Below are positions 2,336 through 26,214 of a stretch of 64,000 nt of DNA, piece after piece. The notes under the pieces are model-generated. The model saw only the letters and a list, made by a program, of their open reading frames with translations. It was not told the DNA's origin and made no database searches. The position numbers and the translations under genes are program-made. The stretch is from Sphingobacteriales bacterium. GTDB lineage: Bacteria > Bacteroidota > Bacteroidia > Sphingobacteriales > Sphingobacteriaceae. The stretch lies in assembly GCA_014763615.1 (NCBI GenBank), contig JACXVB010000005.1, positions 20,457 through 84,456 on the forward strand. The letters run 5' to 3'. Numbering within the stretch: position 1 is the first letter of the stretch; each line of letters starts with the position of its first letter.

Positions 2336-3811
2336 CTATAAAGCACTGCTTAAACTATGTTTTATAGCATAAAAATTAAGAACGCTAAAACCGATGAATA
2401 GCATCAAATGGAATGGGAATAATCCGAAATCATGGTAATAGAAGGCCATCACTAATCCGGATAGGAAATAAAAGCTCAAAAACAGTTCGATATAAAAAGC
2501 TTTTGAAAGATTTCGCTTCACATAAATATTCTCTTTAAAACTGTCTTTTATCTGGGTAATGTTGAATTTGGGCGTTCTGATGAAATCAGATTTAAAGCCA
2601 AATAATCCTTCTAAAACAGCAATAGAATTATGAAAGCTCAAAGCCATAGAAACCGATAAAAACATCGGGAAGAGTTTGGCAAAAGCTACTAAACTTTCTT
2701 TCTTGCTGAAATTAGCCACGAGGTAAAATACGCTCATGATGAAAAACCCGATCAAAAATACAGACATTAGCTGAAAATAAATGGGGTTGATGATATGCTC
2801 ATTTTTAATCCATAATACTGGAATACTCAATAATCCTGTTAAGAAAACAAATAGAAACACGTAGGAATTCATCAAATGTAAGGTCCCGAAAATCTTCTTT
2901 TTTAAACCTACATCTGTTTTCCAAATGTGTTTCAAGAGTTTCTTAGAGGTTTCTACCGCTCCTTTGGTCCAACGGTGTTGCTGAGAGCGCAAAGCATTAG
3001 ATTCAACCGGTAGTTCGGCAGGTGTAACTACATCTTCTACATATTCAAACTGCCAGCCTTTTAGTTGCGCTCGGTAGCTTAAATCCAAATCTTCGGTTAA
3101 GGTATCAAACTGCCAACCGCCTGCTTCTTCAATACATTCTTTTCGCCAAATGCCCGCCGTACCATTAAAATTCATGAATAAGCCAGCTTTATTTCTTCCG
3201 CTTTGTTCAATGGTAAAATGCCCATCCAAACCAAAACCTTGCACTTTAGTGAGCAAAGAATAATCTTTGTTGATATGCCCCCACCTGCTTTGCACCATGC
3301 CTATATTCTTGTTTTGGAAATAAGGAATAAGTTGTTGTAGAAAGTCTTTTTCCGGTAGGAAATCGGCATCAAAAATGGCGATAAATTTACCTTTGGCGAT
3401 GTTTAAACCATTTTGTAAAGCTCCGGCTTTAAAGCCGATATTTTTTGTTCTGGTGAGGTGATGAATATCAAATCCCTCGACTTTCTTTCTGGCAATAATT
3501 GCCGCTGTTAGCGCTAAAGAATTATCATTTGAATCATCTAAAACCTGAATTTCTAATTTTTCTTTAGGATAATCTAAAGCACAAATGCTGTTAATCAGCC
3601 TTTCTACCACATAAAGTTCGTTGTATAAAGGCAGCTGAACGGTAACTTTCGGAATGTCTTTCCCCAAAAGCGGAATGATATCTTTTCTTCTTTTAGAGCG
3701 GAGGTAAAAAAAGATCAAATAGGCTTGCCCCAAGCTAAAAAGTAAGATTACACTTAGCGAGATGGTATAGAGTACAAGAACTATGGTTTGCCAAATCATA
3801 TCAGGGTGCAA
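2336..3811 (-). CDS. Membrane GT2 glycosyltransferase, cellulose-synthase/CslA-like (start possibly ATG at 3799)
   Basis: TVQLPLYNE, FDADF, TEDLD and QQHRW (D,D,D,QxxRW signature); one N-terminal and several C-terminal TM helices. Confidence 0.9.
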   Translation of the reverse strand: MHPDMIWQTIVLVLYTISLSVILLFSLGQAYLIFFYLRSKRRKDIIPLLGKDIPKVTVQLPLYNELYVVERLINSICALDYPKEKLEIQVLDDSNDNSLALTAAIIARKKVEGFDIHHLTRTKNIGFKAGALQNGLNIAKGKFIAIFDADFLPEKDFLQQLIPYFQNKNIGMVQSRWGHINKDYSLLTKVQGFGLDGHFTIEQSGRNKAGLFMNFNGTAGIWRKECIEEAGGWQFDTLTEDLDLSYRAQLKGWQFEYVEDVVTPAELPVESNALRSQQHRWTKGAVETSKKLLKHIWKTDVGLKKKIFGTLHLMNSYVFLFVFLTGLLSIPVLWIKNEHIINPIYFQLMSVFLIGFFIMSVFYLVANFSKKESLVAFAKLFPMFLSVSMALSFHNSIAVLEGLFGFKSDFIRTPKFNITQIKDSFKENIYVKRNLSKAFYIELFLSFYFLSGLVMAFYYHDFGLFPFHLMLFIGFSVLNFYAIKHSLSSAL

Positions 3812-3813
3812 AA

Positions 3814-4518
3814 TTATAAGTTTTTAAAGATCATACCTATTATTTTATAGCCGGCTAAAATCACGCCTTTTACAGTTCCAGATACTTTGCTTAGGCCGAT
3901 TCTTTTTCTGTAATTCACCGGAACTTCAGTACATCTCATTTTCAGTTTAACTGCTTTTATTTGCATTTCTACGGTCCAGCCGTAGGTTTTGTCTTGCATA
4001 TTGATTTTCTGCAAGTCCCCCCAACTGATGGCTCTAAACGGACCTAAATCAGAGAAGGTAACACCATAAAACAAACTAATCAGACGTGTTGCCAGCCAAT
4101 TCCCAAATTCTTGAGGTAAAGTCATGGCTCCTTTTTCTTTCAAACCTAAAGCTCTAGAACCAATCACTAAATCTGCGATATTGTTCTGTATCGGTGCAAT
4201 TATTTTTGTTATTTCTTCAGGATAATCAGAATAATCACCATCCATAAAAACGATAATATCTTCTGCATTGGCTTTAGTGCTTACATATTCTAAACCTTTC
4301 AAACAAGCATTTCCATAACCAGCCTCAGGTGCATCTACCACTGTTGCTCCGGCATCTCTTGCATTTTTAGCAGTTTGATCTTTGGAGTTATTATTACCTA
4401 CGATAATTTCATTGACAAGATTTTTTGGAATATCATTAATGACTTTAGCAATAGATTTTTCTTCGTTATATGCGGGAATAATTACGTAAACTTTTCCTTT
4501 CGGGATATGGTCTGTCAT
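3814..4518 (-). CDS. GT2 glycosyltransferase, polyprenol-phosphate sugar synthase (DPM-like)
   Basis: VIIPAYNEE, MDGDYSD, DLGPFRAI and YGWTVEMQ; 234 aa. Confidence 0.85.
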   Translation of the reverse strand: MTDHIPKGKVYVIIPAYNEEKSIAKVINDIPKNLVNEIIVGNNNSKDQTAKNARDAGATVVDAPEAGYGNACLKGLEYVSTKANAEDIIVFMDGDYSDYPEEITKIIAPIQNNIADLVIGSRALGLKEKGAMTLPQEFGNWLATRLISLFYGVTFSDLGPFRAISWGDLQKINMQDKTYGWTVEMQIKAVKLKMRCTEVPVNYRKRIGLSKVSGTVKGVILAGYKIIGMIFKNL

Positions 4519-10606: not shown

Positions 10607-12907
10607 TCATGATTCCACAATCCTCAACTTCGCAAATTTCAATAGCAATTGCTTCTGACCAATTTCTTTAAAAAGGATAGTAGCCTTGATATCAGGCTTA
10701 TTGCCTTCTAAATGAATCACTTTGCCAAAACCAAAACGTTCATGTTCTACTTCTTGTCCTACTTGTAGTTTAGAAGTATCACTCGGTGCAAAACCTGGAG
10801 AAGGGACATGAGCTTTTGCCAATAAGGAAGTGGTGCTGACTGGTTTCGATGCGGGTTTAGGTTTTGAGTAGAAATCGCCCTGTTTGCTGTTACTGTTTGA
10901 AGTTTTACTTTGCCATTGATTGCGTTCATCACCAAATGAAGAGTCGTTGCTAGTTGCTTTTTTAACAAAATCTAACTCTAAATATTTCGGTTCAATTTCA
11001 TCTAAAAACCGAGAAGGCTCGCAATTGACCAAAGTGCCAAATCTGAAACGAGAGGTGGCGTAGCTGAGGTGTAATTTCTTCTCGGCTCGGGTTACCGCAA
11101 CGTAAAACAATCGACGTTCTTCTTCTAAATCAGCTCTAGAATTGAGTGCCATCTGCGATGGAAAGAGGTTTTCTTCTAAACCTACAATGTACACATGTGG
11201 AAACTCCAAACCTTTGGAGGAGTGGATAGTCATCAATGAAACCGTATCTTTATTTTGATCTTTATCAATGTCATCATTGGTTAACAAAGCCACATCCTGC
11301 ATAAAAATATCCAAGCCTTTTTCTTCGATATCTTCACGCTCAGAAAACTCTTTAATCCCGTTCAGTAATTCCTGAATGTTTTCATATCTCGCTAAACCTT
11401 CCACAGATTTATCATCATATAAATCTTTCAGCAAGCCGGATTGTTGTGCGATGTGTAAAGCCGTTTCGTAAGCATTACTATTTTTAGCTACTACCGCAAA
11501 ACTTTGAATAGCAGTTGCAAAATTCCCAACTGCTGTAGCTGCTCGGCTATCTAAATGTTGATTGGCTTCTGAAATAATTTGGAAAAGCGTTTTATCTTCT
11601 TGATCAGCGGCTAAAATAATTTTATCGATGGTGGTTTTCCCAATTCCACGAGCCGGATAATTAATTACTCTTTTAATGGCTTCTTCGTCGTTCGGATTAA
11701 AAGTGAGGCGGAAATAGGCAATTAAATCTTTGATTTCCTTACGTTGATAGAAGGATAAACCTCCGTAAATTTTGTAAGGAACGTTGAGTTTCCGAAGTGC
11801 CTCTTCCATGGATCTGGATTGCGCATTGGTGCGATACAAAATAGCGAAACTCACCCAGTTGAGATGGTTATTGGCTCTTTCTTCAATGATAGATTCTGCT
11901 ACTAATTTTCCTTCTTCATTGTCTGAATAAGAACGAGTAACTTTTATCTTTTCGCCCGTTTCATTAGCAGAAAAAACGTTTTTATCTAATTGATTTTTAT
12001 TATTGGCGATGATGCTGTTGGCAACATTCACGATATTCTGTGTAGAACGATAGTTTTGTTCTAGCTTAAACACTTTTACATCAGGATAATCTTTTTGAAA
12101 GTTGAGGATGTTTTGAATATTGGCTCCTCTAAACGCATAAATACTTTGTGCATCATCACCCACTACACATAAATTTTCTCTTACAGCGGCTAATTTTTTC
12201 ACGATTAAATACTGAGAGAAATTGGTGTCTTGATACTCATCAACCATCAAATATTTAAACTTTTGTTGGTATTTATTGAGCACATCAGGATGTTCTTTTA
12301 ACAACACATTGGTTTTGAAAAGTAAATCGTCAAAATCCATGGCACCGGCTTTAAAGCAACGATTTGCATAAGTTTCATAAATTTTGCCTAGATAACCTCG
12401 CCCGGTAGAAAAATCATCTGCCTGAATTTGTTCATTTTGTTGATATTCTTGCACAGAAATCAAGTTATTTTTAGCCATTGAAATTCTGCCGTAAACATAG
12501 TTATGATGATAGAGTTTATCATCTAAACTCATCTCTTTAAGGATGGCTTTGATCAAACTTTTACTGTCATCAGTATCATAGATGGTGAAGTTATTAGGAT
12601 AGCCTATTTTATGTGCTTCCACTCTTAATATCTTTGCAAAAACAGAGTGAAAAGTGCCCATCCAAATATTTTTAGCCTCTGCGCCCACCACACTCATGAT
12701 ACGGTTTCGCATTTCTTTGGCTGCCTTATTGGTAAAGGTGAGCACCAAAATATGGAAAGGATCAACCCCTTTCTCCATCAAATGTGCTACCCTGTAAGTG
12801 ATTACTCTGGTTTTTCCAGACCCAGCTCCTGCAACAATCATCACCGGACCCTCTGTTTGTTCAACTGCTAATCTTTGTGATGAATTTAATCCTTGTAAAT
12901 AATCCAA
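10607..12907 (-). CDS. pcrA: UvrD/PcrA/Rep superfamily I DNA helicase (TTG start)
   Basis: AGAGSGKT, VDEYQDTN, LEQNYRS, EERRLFYVAVTRA; C-terminal Tudor-like HERFGFG domain. Confidence 0.95.
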   Translation of the reverse strand: MDYLQGLNSSQRLAVEQTEGPVMIVAGAGSGKTRVITYRVAHLMEKGVDPFHILVLTFTNKAAKEMRNRIMSVVGAEAKNIWMGTFHSVFAKILRVEAHKIGYPNNFTIYDTDDSKSLIKAILKEMSLDDKLYHHNYVYGRISMAKNNLISVQEYQQNEQIQADDFSTGRGYLGKIYETYANRCFKAGAMDFDDLLFKTNVLLKEHPDVLNKYQQKFKYLMVDEYQDTNFSQYLIVKKLAAVRENLCVVGDDAQSIYAFRGANIQNILNFQKDYPDVKVFKLEQNYRSTQNIVNVANSIIANNKNQLDKNVFSANETGEKIKVTRSYSDNEEGKLVAESIIEERANNHLNWVSFAILYRTNAQSRSMEEALRKLNVPYKIYGGLSFYQRKEIKDLIAYFRLTFNPNDEEAIKRVINYPARGIGKTTIDKIILAADQEDKTLFQIISEANQHLDSRAATAVGNFATAIQSFAVVAKNSNAYETALHIAQQSGLLKDLYDDKSVEGLARYENIQELLNGIKEFSEREDIEEKGLDIFMQDVALLTNDDIDKDQNKDTVSLMTIHSSKGLEFPHVYIVGLEENLFPSQMALNSRADLEEERRLFYVAVTRAEKKLHLSYATSRFRFGTLVNCEPSRFLDEIEPKYLELDFVKKATSNDSSFGDERNQWQSKTSNSNSKQGDFYSKPKPASKPVSTTSLLAKAHVPSPGFAPSDTSKLQVGQEVEHERFGFGKVIHLEGNKPDIKATILFKEIGQKQLLLKFAKLRIVES

Positions 12908-12935
12908 ACCTTAATTTTTTATGAGCAGTAAAAGT

Positions 12936-12969
12936 AAAAAAAATGAGGCGGAGATTTGAATTCCGCCTC
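12936..12969 (-). terminator. Intrinsic terminator after the TPR-HisKA gene
   Basis: Perfect 8-bp stem gaggcgga/tccgcctc (12945-12969) followed by T8 on the minus strand. Confidence 0.75.
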
Positions 12970-12987
12970 GTATAAGATTTCCACTTT

Positions 12988-14478
12988 TTATTTTTTATGG
13001 AGATGTAATCTCGTGGGGTCGTGTAGAACTTGGTTGATATCCATAATTTGCTCATCAATATCATCTACACATTTTTTCATCTGCGGAATTACTTCATTAC
13101 TTTCTACTATATTTTGTTGTACCAACATTACTAAACCTTTTAAAGTAGCCACAGGTCCTCGTATTTGGTGAGAAAGATGGGAAGAGTATTCAGAAAGCTT
13201 TTGATTTTTGTAAATCAAATCTTTGGTTCTTTCGGTAATAATATCTTCTAATCGTTGGTTAATTTTATCCACATTGGCTTTTTGCCTCAAAACTTCCTCA
13301 TTTAAGGCAGAAAGCACTCTGTTGCTTTCTTTTGATTTTCTATTGTTTTTAATGAGAATTACAACCAAAATGATAGAAAGTAAAGTAACAATGCTACTGG
13401 CAATAAACAAAGTTTTGGTGTTACGCTGTTTGGCAATGGTCAGCTCGTTTTCTTTTTGAATTTGCTGTTGCTTTAGCGTTTCTTGTATCAAATTGATGTT
13501 TGAGGCGGTGTTTTTCTTATAATTAACACTATCTAAATCATGCACTTCTTTTAAATAATAAAGTGCTTTTTCATAATTTTTTCTTTTAGCTTCGAGTTCA
13601 TAGGATTCAAAAGTATAATCATACAATCTTTTTTCGTCATTGACCAATTTTGCAAAAGCAATACCTTCATTCAAAAATTCTTCTGCTTTTTTGAAATTTT
13701 TGTCAGAAATATAAATGGAAGTTAGGGTTAAATCAATGGAAGCCACACTGCTATTTAACTCGAATTCTTTTGCTTTTTGATTAGCTTGCAGAAGTAATTT
13801 TTTTGCTTCTTGAACCTTGTTCAAACTGAAAAAAATCACCCCTCTATTTTGTAGACTTTGAGTTATACCAATGGGGTTACCAATTTTATTAAAAATTGTA
13901 CTGCTCTTCTGATAATTTTCAAGGGCAACGGAATAATTTTTTTTTCTAAAATATGTGTTACCAATATTTAAATAGGAACCGGCCAACAAATCTTTGATGC
14001 CGTACTTTTCTGCTATTTTTAATGAATTTTTGTAATATGATAAGGCTTTATCATAGTCGATATCAAGCCATAAGTTTCCTATATTATTAGAAACTTTGGC
14101 TTCCCCCAATTTATCACCCAATTTTTTATATAAATTTAAAGAAATGAGATAACGATTTAAGGCTGTATCTCTCTGATTGAGATAATAATAGCCAATACCT
14201 TGAACTCGATTAGATTCTGCCATTCCACTTTTATAATGGATTAATGAAGCGATTTTCTCCGCTTTTTTGGCGGTATTGATGCTCTGTTCAGGATCCGTTA
14301 ATCTATTTTTATAAGCTTGCTCATTTAGTTCATCTACCGTGTTGGTGTCTTTTTTTAAGCCCAATAAGGAGTCATCTTGCTGAAACGCGTAAGAAGCCGC
14401 ATGCAAACCTAAGCAAAGTAAAAGCATTAAATAGTACCTCATGAATGGTGTTTTTGTCTGAAGAGTAAAGATATTCAT
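12988..14478 (-). CDS. Membrane TPR sensor with HisKA-like H-box and no HATPase domain (likely start ATG 14442)
   Basis: Signal peptide MRYYLMLLLCLGLHAASYA; TPR repeats about aa 50-320 (NNIGN, NIGNTY, NRGVIF); TM aa 357-376; coiled coil; SHQIRGP (H437); ends 59 aa later. Confidence 0.85.
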   Translation of the reverse strand: MNIFTLQTKTPFMRYYLMLLLCLGLHAASYAFQQDDSLLGLKKDTNTVDELNEQAYKNRLTDPEQSINTAKKAEKIASLIHYKSGMAESNRVQGIGYYYLNQRDTALNRYLISLNLYKKLGDKLGEAKVSNNIGNLWLDIDYDKALSYYKNSLKIAEKYGIKDLLAGSYLNIGNTYFRKKNYSVALENYQKSSTIFNKIGNPIGITQSLQNRGVIFFSLNKVQEAKKLLLQANQKAKEFELNSSVASIDLTLTSIYISDKNFKKAEEFLNEGIAFAKLVNDEKRLYDYTFESYELEAKRKNYEKALYYLKEVHDLDSVNYKKNTASNINLIQETLKQQQIQKENELTIAKQRNTKTLFIASSIVTLLSIILVVILIKNNRKSKESNRVLSALNEEVLRQKANVDKINQRLEDIITERTKDLIYKNQKLSEYSSHLSHQIRGPVATLKGLVMLVQQNIVESNEVIPQMKKCVDDIDEQIMDINQVLHDPTRLHLHKK

Positions 14479-14727
14479 AAAATCTTAAATAATTCATTCG
14501 TTAAGAAAAATAGAATTATTCTTTATTTAAATGATAAAAATTATTTAATTGTAAGATTACTTTATTTTTTTTAATATAAATATTTCGTTTAAAATAAATT
14601 AGCCCATAATTTAGCCTATATATTAACGTATTGGATACGAAATTTCATTATTAAAAGTTTCGTTTTTTTAAATTTTATTGCACACTTATTCACAAAATTT
14701 TAAAACCATCAAAATAAAAGTAAAGAC

Positions 14728-14865
14728 ATGAAAAAAATCATCATCGCATTATTAGTAGTATCTGCCCTAGGTGTCACTTCTTGCAAAAAAGACAATGGCA
14801 TTACTCCAGCTAAATCAACCGCAGTAAAAGTAAACGATAGAGGAGACTTAGGTACTTGGGATTAA
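14728..14865 (+). CDS. Small lipoprotein/peptide P1, 45 aa (not in ORF track): MKKIIIALLVVSALGVTSCKKDNGITPAKSTAVKVNDRGDLGTWD
   Basis: Translated by hand. MKK plus hydrophobic core, lipobox VTS-C19, CKKD; A-rich leader; paralog immediately downstream. Confidence 0.85.
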   Translation: MKKIIIALLVVSALGVTSCKKDNGITPAKSTAVKVNDRGDLGTWD

Positions 14866-14905
14866 TTAACAAGAGTTTAAAACCATCAAAACAAAAATCA
14901 AGAAT

Positions 14906-15043
14906 ATGAAAAAGATTATTATCGTATTATTAGTGGTATCCGCCCTTGGCGTAGCTTCTTGTAAAAAGGAAAATAGCATAGCTCCAGTTAAATCAACTGC
15001 AGTAAAAGTAAATGATAGAGGAGACTTAGGCACATGGGACTAA
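14906..15043 (+). CDS. Small lipoprotein/peptide P2, 45 aa (not in ORF track): MKKIIIVLLVVSALGVASCKKENSIAPVKSTAVKVNDRGDLGTWD
   Basis: Translated by hand. 39/45 aa identical to P1; lipobox VAS-C19; last 17 aa identical to P1. Confidence 0.85.
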   Translation: MKKIIIVLLVVSALGVASCKKENSIAPVKSTAVKVNDRGDLGTWD

Positions 15044-15075
15044 GGATTTCATTAACAAACATTAAAATCAAGAAC

Positions 15076-15231
15076 ATGAAAAAGTTATTAATCATTGTGT
15101 TTGTAGCTATTACAGCGGTAGCCGCAGCAACAACATTAAAAAAAGCAGACAAGGTAGAGGCAAAACCAACTACGATTCAACAACAGGTGGTAGATGCGCC
15201 AAGAAATGCGCAAGTAGCTACTTGGGATTAA
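15076..15231 (+). CDS. Small exported peptide P3, 51 aa: MKKLLIIVFVAITAVAAATTLKKADKVEAKPTTIQQQVVDAPRNAQVATWD
   Basis: The ORF track extends it to 15034, but ATG 15076 has the same leader and MKK start as P1/P2. Hydrophobic signal without Cys; ends VATWD. Confidence 0.8.
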   Translation: MKKLLIIVFVAITAVAAATTLKKADKVEAKPTTIQQQVVDAPRNAQVATWD

Positions 15232-15343
15232 GCATTTAGATAGCTATAAGCCTATCAATTGGAATCGGATGAAAAGATGCTTTTTGTAATGGCTTTTTAA
15301 AAGCCTAAAGTATAATTTCTATATTTGCGTAAATCCTAATTTT

Positions 15344-16714
15344 ATGCAAGTCATTAAGAATTATGTGGAAGAGCATCGTCAAAGATTTTTAGACGAATTA
15401 TTTGAATTATTGAGATTTCCGTCGGTAAGTGCAGATCCTAAGTATAAGGGAGAGGTATTAAAAACTGCGGATTTTGTTGCCGATAAACTGAAAGCAGCCG
15501 GAGCCGAACACGTTGAAGTTTGTGCTACAGAAGGCTATCCCATTGTTTACGGAGAAAAAATGAAAGACCCTACCTTACCAACGGTGTTGGTATATGGTCA
15601 TTACGATGTGCAACCACCAGATCCGTTGGACTTGTGGCATACACCACCTTTTGAGCCTACTGTAAGAGACGGTAAAATATATGCTCGAGGTGCTTGTGAT
15701 GATAAGGGTCAATTTTACATGCATGTCAAAGCTTTTGAGCTGATGATGCGTACGGAAACACTTCCTTGCAATATCAAATTTATGATAGAAGGAGAGGAGG
15801 AAGTAGGTTCTGATAATTTGGGGAAGTTCGTTTCCCAAAATACAGAGAGATTAAAAGCCGATGTGGTTTTAATCTCTGATACTTCCATGTTGAGCATGGA
15901 AAATCCTTCCTTAGAAACAGGTTTACGAGGTTTGGCATACATGGAAGTGGAAGTTCAGGGACCGAACCGTGATTTACATTCTGGCGTTTATGGTGGTGCG
16001 GTGGCTAATCCGGCTACTATTCTTTGCCAAATGATTGCTTCTTTACACGATGAAAACAATCATATCACTATACCAAGTTTTTACGATGGAGTCATTGAAC
16101 TTTCTGCCGAAGAAAGGAAAGCCTTAAATGATGCTCCATTTGATTTGGAAGAATATAAAAATGACCTTTCTGTAGAAGAGGTTTGGGGAGAGAAAGGTTA
16201 TACCACTATAGAAAGAACTGGAATTCGTCCGACTTTAGAAGTCAACGGAATTTGGGGTGGATATACTGGTCCAGGTGCAAAAACAGTCCTTCCAGCCAAA
16301 GCCAATGCTAAAATTTCTATGAGATTGGTACCAGGTCAAGATTGGAAGAAAATTTCTGATCTTTTCAAAAAGCATATAGAAAGTATTGCACCTAAATCTG
16401 TAAAAGTGAAAGTAACCGCTCATCATGGAGGAACTCCTTATGTAACTCCAACGGATTCTATTGCTTTTCAGGCTGCCTTTAGAGCTATTGAAGAAGCTTT
16501 TGGCAAGCAACCAGTACCTACTAGAGGTGGTGGAAGTATCCCAATAGTTGCTTTGTTTGAGCAAGAGTTAGGCATTAAAACGGTATTAATGGGTTTTGGT
16601 TTAGATAGTGATAATCTACATTCTCCGAACGAGAAATATGATATTTTCAACTATTATAAAGGGATAGAAACCATTCCTTTATTTCATAAATATTTTGCTG
16701 AATTGAGCAAGTAA
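15344..16714 (+). CDS. M20-family dipeptidase (ArgE/DapE/CNDP-like)
   Basis: YGHYDVQP, RGACDDKG, EGEEE, HSPNE; upstream TATATTTG -7 element. Confidence 0.92.
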   Translation: MQVIKNYVEEHRQRFLDELFELLRFPSVSADPKYKGEVLKTADFVADKLKAAGAEHVEVCATEGYPIVYGEKMKDPTLPTVLVYGHYDVQPPDPLDLWHTPPFEPTVRDGKIYARGACDDKGQFYMHVKAFELMMRTETLPCNIKFMIEGEEEVGSDNLGKFVSQNTERLKADVVLISDTSMLSMENPSLETGLRGLAYMEVEVQGPNRDLHSGVYGGAVANPATILCQMIASLHDENNHITIPSFYDGVIELSAEERKALNDAPFDLEEYKNDLSVEEVWGEKGYTTIERTGIRPTLEVNGIWGGYTGPGAKTVLPAKANAKISMRLVPGQDWKKISDLFKKHIESIAPKSVKVKVTAHHGGTPYVTPTDSIAFQAAFRAIEEAFGKQPVPTRGGGSIPIVALFEQELGIKTVLMGFGLDSDNLHSPNEKYDIFNYYKGIETIPLFHKYFAELSK

Positions 16715-25608: not shown

Positions 25609-26100
25609 TTATTCTTTCCATTTGTCTTTTAAATCGCTTACAAACAAGCTCAGTTCTTTTATAAAAAGATCTAAATCTTCTGCTGATTTTTTCATAAAAC
25701 CAATTGATTCAAGCAATTCTTCTTTTGATTGTTGTTTTTCTATAATTTCTACAAGACCTAAAATATTAGCCACCGGTTGCCGTACTTTATGAGAGGTAAT
25801 AAAGGTCATTTTTTCTAAATCACGGATTCGATATTTTAGATAAGTTTCAGCCTTTTTTAATTCCTGATTAGCATATTCTAGTTCATCAGCTCGCTTTTCT
25901 TTCTCCCGATTTTGATAAGCTAGCTCTTGGTTTGCTATAGCCAATTCTGCAGCCCTTTTTTCTTTTTCTTGATTTTGAAAAATGAGCTCTTTATTAGCGA
26001 TAATTAACGCTGATGCTTTCTTTTTCTTTTCGTGATTTTGGAATGCGTATTCAGATGGGGTGAGAATGATGTTATTATTTTGAGGGGATGACTTCTCCAT
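25609..26100 (-). CDS. Soluble coiled-coil repeat protein with HisKA H-box and no HATPase domain
   Basis: Three 21-aa repeats (xxQNxEKEKRAxELxxANxEL) followed by TSHKVRQPVANILGL; ends about 50 aa after the His. ATG 26100 preferred over the 26130 start in the track. Confidence 0.75.
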   Translation of the reverse strand: MEKSSPQNNNIILTPSEYAFQNHEKKKKASALIIANKELIFQNQEKEKRAAELAIANQELAYQNREKEKRADELEYANQELKKAETYLKYRIRDLEKMTFITSHKVRQPVANILGLVEIIEKQQSKEELLESIGFMKKSAEDLDLFIKELSLFVSDLKDKWKE

Positions 26101-26214
26101 AGAATGATGGGATATAATTTTAAAAATCAAAACAAACTATATCTACCTCATGAAGTCATTTTCGAAGTCTGTACATAAATGTAGGACTAATTTCTAACTA
26201 TTTTGATTTTTTAA

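Follow-up and report, generated by a model that had tools for sequence, protein, structure and literature searches.

The window, by which we mean the whole 64,000-nt stretch of Sphingobacteriales DNA analysed here, contains a tandem array of three small peptide genes, P1, P2, and P3, which lies divergent to a gene for a TPR-DHp protein and is followed by a gene for an M20 dipeptidase. The features of the array and of its divergent neighbour are these:

12988 to 14442, minus strand: TPR-DHp protein, the candidate receptor (ATG at 14442; the ORF extends up to 14478), recognised from Pfam, orthologues, and an AF2 model.
14479 to 14727, no strand: AT-rich divergent intergenic region from the sensor gene to the peptide array, presumed to be a shared control region.
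14728 to 14865, plus strand: P1, from its sequence a 45-residue lipoprotein-type peptide with lipobox VTSC and tail DRGDLGTWD.
14906 to 15043, plus strand: P2, from its sequence a 45-residue lipoprotein-type peptide with lipobox VASC and tail DRGDLGTWD.
15076 to 15231, plus strand: P3, the last gene of the array, encoding a non-lipidated 51-residue peptide of the P3 type that is predicted to be exported (ORF, orthologues, profile matches, and pN/pS).
15076 to 15129, plus strand: P3 residues 1-18, MKKLLIIVFVAITAVAAA, a putative Sec signal with an AAA/TT SPase-I site, or possibly a signal anchor (sequence, pN/pS, and a hydrophobicity comparison).
15130 to 15195, plus strand: P3 residues 19-40, a variable core that behaves as a fast-evolving spacer.
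15196 to 15228, plus strand: conserved P3 tail APRNAQVATWD, the P3-type version of the family tail unit.

The P3 gene runs from an ATG at 15076 to a TAA at 15229-15231, and its 51-residue translation, MKKLLIIVFVAITAVAAATTLKKADKVEAKPTTIQQQVVDAPRNAQVATWD, contains no Cys. From an in-frame ATG at 15034, 42 nt upstream, a 65-residue product (15034-15231, plus strand) overlapping the P2 stop codon could be made, and longer upstream starts are used in some public calls of P3-type genes (P0015, P0034, P0035, and P0038); against the 15034 start, the conservation of P3-type peptides begins at MKK, and every orthologue starts there. A preliminary description of the locus had given P3 the same leader and MKK start as its neighbours, and this identity is indeed visible at the DNA level between P2 and P3, which share AAAATCAAGAA[T/C]ATGAAAAAG around the start. 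SPase II substrates are recognised by a lipobox, [LVI][ASTVI][GAS]C, that closes the signal peptide, and P3, having no Cys, does not contain one. Among 20,207 small ORF candidates in the 3.28-Mb genome, four end in [TSA]W[DE], and those with a signal-like N-terminus as well are exactly P1, P2, and P3; since only these three combine the two properties genome-wide, the pattern found in P3 is not due to chance. Small ORFs of this kind are systematically left 'hypothetical' or uncalled, and a public copy of P3 is annotated merely as 'hypothetical protein [Pseudopedobacter sp.]'.

The tails of P1 and P2 run ..VKVNDRGDLGTWD, ending NDRGDLGTWD, and in both peptides KK stands directly after the lipobox Cys. 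From these N-termini we infer that P1 and P2 are lipidated and that all three peptides are exported by Sec. Surface-exposed lipoproteins of Bacteroidota carry an LES, K-(D/E)2 or Q-A-(D/E)2, at +3 to +5 after the lipidated Cys, and constructs with a single acidic residue (KD or KE) were graded 'very weak' for surface export (PMC5080379). With one acidic residue each, the CKKDN of P1 and the CKKEN of P2 fall into this 'very weak' KD/KE class by the criteria of that study, and would be a weak surface-export signal at best; some relatives have CKKEE or CKKDE after the lipobox. The spacers between P1 and P2 and between P2 and P3 are only 40 and 32 nt long, which suggests that the three genes are co-transcribed. 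No canonical Bacteroidota -7 box (TAnnTTTG) occurs on the plus strand upstream of P1, Rfam returned chance-level matches only over 12800-15500, and neither a scan for sigma-70 promoters and terminators nor RNA folding 3' of P3 gave results better than shuffles, with only a weak GGCUUUUUAAAAGCC hairpin. A TATATTTG box that agrees with the TAnnTTTG consensus does lie at 15320-15327 on the plus strand, 17 nt upstream of the M20 start, and its position makes it probable that M20 is transcribed from a promoter of its own, outside the peptide operon.

For comparison, we assembled 33 loci, namely the window and 32 others, each with an orthologue of the divergent TPR gene. The gene order is the same in all of them (divergent TPR gene, one or more peptide genes, M20 dipeptidase) wherever the locus sequence extends to M20. 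Sixteen of the 33 loci, from several genera, contain a P3-type gene, which is always the last in the array and adjoins M20. P3-type genes are usually single-copy, and lipopeptide genes are present in one to eight copies per locus; at one locus (L036) a unit of lipopeptide plus P3 has been duplicated. P3 orthologues with 37-69% identity are found at the corresponding place in further genomes of the genus; 7 genomes of the genus have such an orthologue. A P3-type profile built from 17 peptides and searched against 1.84 billion representative proteins (E<=1e-3) gave 37 matches, of which about 35 are convincing, these being clusters at 50% identity, and two metagenome contigs reached via divergent P3-type proteins have the same gene order. 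The matched proteins are intact ORFs of 51-63 residues (longer where an upstream start was called) with MKK and a long hydrophobic stretch, and, as had been claimed for P3 itself, they contain no Cys in a lipobox context, P0023 (LVSC) being a possible exception among the roughly 35 clusters. Pfam and NCBIfam gave no match to the P3-type peptides of other genera or to the polyproteins described below.

The core of P3-type peptides cannot be aligned between genera, and the tails end in ATWD, ASWD, SNWD, ATAD, or SSAD, and rarely in TSWD, TTWD, GTWD, or GSAD. A longer motif, AP[KR][SN]..A[TS][WA]D, crosses genus boundaries, with VDAPRNAQVATWD here and ..VDAPKSDLATAD in another genus, and argues for a single origin of the P3 type. 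Within the genus of the window, pN/pS of the P3 orthologues reaches 0.83 in the core, against 0.29 in the signal and 0.38 over the last eight residues, a contrast which indicates that selection acts on export and on the tail while the core is nearly a free spacer; the proposal that P3 joins the same terminal motif to a different core thus takes a more definite shape, that of the same tail unit on a fast-evolving core. On a tree of the TPR proteins, loci with a P3-type gene fall in both main clades and at least 7-8 changes are needed to explain their distribution. Given this spread and the motifs held in common, the P3 type is best read as ancestral and repeatedly lost, and its loss on at least seven occasions implies that it is dispensable, which fits a modulatory rather than an essential role. 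Absence from 17 of the 33 loci would also be expected if P3 were a decaying duplicate of a lipopeptide gene that had lost its Cys and its function, and a loss of this kind can be seen in the genus with polyproteins, where Tyr replaces the lipobox Cys in some array members (..LPSYTK vs ..LPSCTK). The P3 type nevertheless forms a coherent cross-genus family with its own motifs, its own length, and a fixed last position in the array, its signal and tail are under purifying selection, and the ORF is intact in all of the roughly 35 clusters at 50% identity, so that decay is largely refuted and, in our judgement, very improbable. P3 is best explained, as far as the sequences go, as a functional, anciently diverged, non-lipidated paralogue in a tandem array of putative exported peptides.

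What the peptides have in common is a tail unit of about nine residues: a basic residue, any residue, Asp or Asn, a hydrophobic residue, Gly, any residue, one of Trp, Ala, Gly, Met, or Tyr, and a terminal Asp. In the P3-type version, a basic residue is followed by x-D/Q, a hydrophobic residue, Ala, Thr or Ser, Trp or Ala, and Asp as the last residue. Lipopeptides are nearly identical within a genome and differ between genomes, a pattern that points to concerted evolution, and by lineage their tails read GTWD, STWD, GSWD, GNWD, GGWD, TQWD, GTGD, GSGD, GQAD, GTAD, LGMD/SGMD, GDYD, or TYGE/TYEE/TYDE, the last residue being acidic throughout and nearly always Asp. The two types differ at the position three residues before the final Asp, which is Ala or Ser in the P3-type peptides of 14 of the 16 loci (Ala, Ser, or Thr in 33 of 35 clusters) and Gly in the non-P3 units of most loci; two P3-type genes, at L039 and L071, have kept the Gly. 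The next-to-last residue, on the other hand, is Trp in both types or Ala in both types at 14 of 16 loci, and no locus mixes Trp with Ala. The change from Trp to Ala occurred once, in one genus, and affected P3-type peptides and lipopeptides alike; this joint switch is suggestive of a tail constraint shared by the two types, as a single event and not as a statistical result. Some species of the window's own genus (L075-L081) have a single lipopeptide with a Tyr-containing acidic tail (GDYD, GKYD, TYGE, TYEE, or TYDE) in place of ..WD, and the TPR proteins of these species have long branches (0.46-0.6) in the receptor tree.

The tail unit also occurs outside lipopeptides and P3-type peptides. 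One genus has had its array partly or wholly replaced by polyproteins, which are not lipoproteins and contain 3-14 tail units arranged head to tail (examples are L074 on G065:C51, at about 2800-4250 on the minus strand, L095 at 472-1167, and L070-L072). The polyproteins of one genus have clean SPase-I-type signals (..STANA/S.., ..SVANA/A.., the slash marking the site) followed by three to five copies of (T/N)KKD(I/V)GTAD, for instance four or five of TKKDIGTAD; a single ORF in one genome contains 13 copies of SDKKSTGSADL, and a metagenome contig encodes a polyprotein with 14 copies of LGDKKDLGSADFAF, and here too the signals are of the SPase-I type. That the polyproteins repeat the nine-residue unit argues that the unit is the functional module. 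Some peptides have extra residues beyond it, as in ..GQADGK, ..GTWDGRSDSLSNP, and the polyprotein repeats themselves, and such repeats and C-terminally extended copies would call for proteolytic release, by an enzyme unlinked to the locus, if the C-terminal Asp is to be free.

The N-terminus of P3 consists of MKK, then LLIIVFVAITAV, then AAA/TT, with 12 hydrophobic residues in a run of 18 uncharged ones. Almost every P3-type member has this layout, in which MKK is followed by 12-13 hydrophobic residues, a Gly/Ala break, and small residues at -3 and -1 for a total of 18-24 residues, and which fits an SPase-I signal; the P3 N-terminus is read as a Sec-type signal, probably one for SPase I. The length and hydrophobicity of the segment also fit an uncleaved signal anchor, which would make P3 a small single-pass inner-membrane protein (N-in, C-out) whose tail unit tunes the sensor in cis while the lipopeptides act from the outer membrane. 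Compared with lipoprotein signals, P3-type N-termini are longer (18-22 vs 15-20 uncharged residues) and more hydrophobic (best 19-residue Kyte-Doolittle mean 2.28, which is also the value of P3, with a range of 1.94-2.82, vs 1.68). A clean A-x-A site, moreover, is found mainly in the window's genus, and in other genera the hydrophobic stretch runs directly into charged residues (..SLGFTIIDK, ..GVVIAEIVK). Weighing these observations against the canonical SPase-I layout of nearly all members, and against the want of homology between P3 and MgrB or SafA, we consider an anchored P3 rather unlikely. The preliminary description had taken P3 for a soluble ligand beside the anchored ones, which it may be if SPase I does cleave it.

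The product of the divergent gene begins with a signal peptide and about 6.5 periplasmic TPRs, which are followed by one TM helix (residues 344-364, numbered from the ATG at 14442), a coiled coil, and a HisKA/DHp domain with its His in SHQIRGP. Pfam recognises the repeats (TPR_12, 1.8e-22) and the HisKA domain (1.8e-4, residues 429-482 of the 496-residue ORF), and the position of the TPRs, after a signal peptide and before a single TM helix, places them outside the cytoplasm. A sensor histidine kinase is recognised by an HATPase_c domain after the DHp; Pfam finds none in this protein, and all 32 orthologues end 40-60 residues past the His box, so that the candidate receptor does not fall into that class. 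Across the 32 orthologues, the periplasmic domain is conserved much less well than the cytoplasmic DHp. The AF2 model (pLDDT 86.4) has a TPR superhelix and then a single unbroken helix (residues 288-440) that crosses the membrane and enters the DHp. Its closest solved folds in Foldseek are LGN/Pins peptide complexes (E 3e-10) and then Rap-Phr receptors, with TM-scores of 0.36-0.49 against the whole model that signify generic TPR fold similarity only. Invariant or nearly so in the candidate receptor are the helix A Asn of successive TPRs, E74, and R77, a set of residues that we infer to resemble a peptide-backbone 'Asn ladder' with a carboxylate clamp. The gene has orthologues (E<1e-100) in Sphingobacteriaceae only, one per genome. 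It had been suggested that P3 might serve a different receptor paralogue, an idea that we reject on the ground of this single TPR orthologue per genome; the window's genome otherwise contains only distant TPR kinases, with 22-31% identity.

The peptides are tied to the TPR gene chiefly by their joint occurrence. At least one peptide gene lies between the TPR orthologue and M20 in 33 of 33 loci, and the peptide is absent from all 12 genomes that have kept M20 and have no TPR orthologue anywhere in the genome; in two of these (L085 and L086) UvrD still stands beside M20. This joint presence and absence implies that the TPR gene and the peptides are one unit that is gained or lost together and that M20 and UvrD are bystanders, and the M20 dipeptidase was rejected as a part of the module because it is syntenic in genomes without TPR gene and peptides. 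Since gene adjacency is inherited within one family, and the housekeeping genes M20 and UvrD are syntenic as well, the linkage rests mainly on joint presence and absence. Distant TPR-DHp proteins of other families (24-31% identity) have no peptide arrays beside them. The divergence of the periplasmic domain is higher between different tail classes, by 0.077 in p-distance after a cytoplasmic covariate, a value that none of 2000 shuffles reaches, though the shuffles ignore phylogeny.

In a rival account, the peptides do not bind the TPR protein. The peptides, P3 included, could be plentiful components of the envelope, or could give rise to a released product that has a target of its own, such as another cell, a surface, or a metal, and the TPR-DHp protein would do no more than control, chaperone, or scaffold the way they are made or processed. 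That identical lipopeptide genes are amplified and evolve in concert points to a need for dosage, polyprotein precursors are commonly the source of released products, and an output that consists of a DHp only is unusual for a receptor. Such an account is harder to reconcile with the strict joint presence and absence of peptides and TPR gene, with the likeness of the TPR fold to receptors that hold peptides, and with the divergence of the periplasmic domain along with tail class. Against it, too, no modifying enzyme, transporter, or protease is linked to the locus, the neighbours being the housekeeping M20 dipeptidase and UvrD. On balance, we regard this account as unlikely.

The reading that we prefer is that P3 is an accessory, non-lipidated paralogue that presents the tail unit to the periplasmic TPR sensor; as a whole explanation, we think it about evenly poised between right and wrong. 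The active part of the peptides would be the tail unit, that is, the roughly nine C-terminal residues with their terminal Asp, and it would be presented in three ways: by mini-lipoproteins such as P1 and P2, by secreted polyproteins with 3-14 repeats in some genera, and by a P3-type peptide, once per locus. The candidate reader of the Asp-ended unit is the kinase-less DHp membrane protein of the divergent gene, which would bind the unit in its periplasmic TPR superhelix and may then signal, by way of its highly conserved cytoplasmic DHp, to a kinase or response regulator that is not linked to the locus. P3, whether SPase I frees it into the periplasm or it remains tethered to the inner membrane, may act as an accessory modulator at the same receptor groove, either as a competitor or as an alternative ligand, and would differ from P1 and P2 in its location and, through the Gly-to-Ala position, in its binding properties. 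An agonist or antagonist role for P3 is speculative, and the change from Gly to Ala or Ser three residues before the Asp offers a concrete handle on it.

Several known systems share parts of this arrangement. In Bacillota and their phages, TPR-receptor peptide signalling is textbook knowledge. As in the RRNPP systems (Rap-Phr, NprR-NprX, PlcR-PapR, and AimR-AimP), a gene for a small pro-peptide that is exported by Sec (predicted so here) stands beside a gene for a TPR receptor, and the information lies in the C-terminal 5-10 residues (here a conserved tail stands on a freely varying core); RapF, RapJ-PhrC, phi3T Rap, and pLS20 Rap-Phr* are among the solved structures closest in fold to the receptor model. 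RRNPP receptors, however, are cytoplasmic, whereas the TPR domain here, preceded by a signal peptide and followed by a TM helix, would be periplasmic and would need no re-import of the peptide by Opp. The output here is a DHp without a kinase domain rather than an HTH or a phosphatase, lipoproteins or polyproteins serve as the carriers, the organisms belong to the Bacteroidota, and a family-model match is absent. The model for Phr (TIGR04429 Phr_nterm) scores 10.8 bits against a cut-off of 25 and that for AimP (NF033802 AimP_fam) 13.7-20.3 bits against 35, both through the N-terminal signal only, and the model for Chryseobasin-related MNIO RiPPs likewise stays below threshold with a match to the signal only. 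The model for the PG1828 family lipoprotein (NF050142), with a cut-off of 50, gives 26 bits for P1, 29.6 for P2, and 17.5 for P3 over model positions 1-37/44 only, out of 59; it has 34 sub-threshold matches in the window's genome and matches in 12 of 14 control genomes, and hits so widespread and so confined to the N-terminus reflect the signal peptide only.

The best precedent for the idea that P1 and P2 stand against P3 comes from Enterococcus faecalis, in which cCF10, from the lipoprotein CcfA, and iCF10, from the small ORF prgQ, are agonist and antagonist at the TPR-type PrgX. There, too, a peptide borne on a lipoprotein is paired with a similar one from a separate ORF that does not encode a lipoprotein, which is the analogy we draw. 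The enterococcal pheromone, unlike the tail unit, comes from the signal peptide of the lipoprotein rather than from its C-terminus; PrgX is a cytoplasmic receptor, and the genes for the two peptides are on different replicons. With considerable doubt, we put forward a bolder form of the preferred reading, in which the module would be an extracytoplasmic RRNPP counterpart in Sphingobacteriaceae: a periplasmic TPR groove would read Asp-ended nonapeptides from lipoproteins or polyproteins, and P3, by its Gly-to-Ala change, would be a built-in antagonist or set-point peptide, much as in the cCF10/iCF10 pair but across the Gram-negative envelope.

Other parallels concern binding, topology, and precursor design. 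The carboxylate clamp for EEVD-COOH (Hsp70 or Hsp90 with Hop or CHIP) and LGN/Pins both involve an extended peptide and a concave TPR groove, here putative, with an obligatory C-terminal Asp, and the candidate receptor would match the clamp in its invariant helix-A Asn in successive repeats and its invariant Arg; those systems, by contrast, are made up of eukaryotic cytosolic proteins. Small membrane proteins tune sensor kinases in the pairs MgrB-PhoQ, SafA-PhoQ, and MzrA-EnvZ, and lipoproteins act on sensors in NlpE-CpxA and RcsF-IgaA. By analogy, the periplasmic part of an inner-membrane sensor could be acted on here by outer-membrane lipoproteins or by peptides of about 50 residues that have a hydrophobic segment at the N-terminus and their tail in the periplasm, but the proteins are not homologous, the known ones have neither tandem arrays nor a C-terminal unit that is repeated, and the sensors on which they act are complete kinases. 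Yeast alpha-factor and the precursors of fungal UstA-type and multi-core RiPPs resemble the polyproteins in having a signal peptide, head-to-tail units, and di-basic residues (TKK-DIGTAD); unlike in those multi-copy precursors, no processing protease or modifying enzyme is linked here, and most genomes, including this one, have one unit per gene.

No description of equivalent TPR peptide signalling in Bacteroidota was found in the family libraries or in the searchable literature, and this peptide-plus-TPR-sensor module of soil Bacteroidota, whose function we propose from sequence, is apparently undescribed. If the preferred reading is true, the module would be an extracytoplasmic version of TPR-receptor signalling, with ligands borne on lipoproteins and polyproteins and an obligatory C-terminal Asp, and its sensor would be unusual in having a phospho-acceptor His and no kinase domain. 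P3 would represent a second, non-lipidated class of putative ligand that differs at one fixed position, and would provide a handle on tethered versus free copies of one signal.

Two further genes deserve mention. A second His-box protein without an ATPase domain is encoded at 25609-26130 on the minus strand of the window; it has 173 residues and no TM helix, and its three coiled-coil repeats of 21 residues (..IANKELIFQNQEKEKRAAEL..) are followed by TSHKVRQPVANILGL. It could possibly be a partner or a relative of the DHp-only sensor. Many Sphingobacteriaceae genomes also have, within a few kb of the module, a conserved ORF of 82-98 residues (MKMAYV[TL]WNKD..VADE.II.DL..) with a long basic tail rich in Asn, Gln, and Arg, for example at 13182-13430 in L034, 14444-14695 in L035, and 6390-6683 in L076, among others; it seems to be unrelated to the module.
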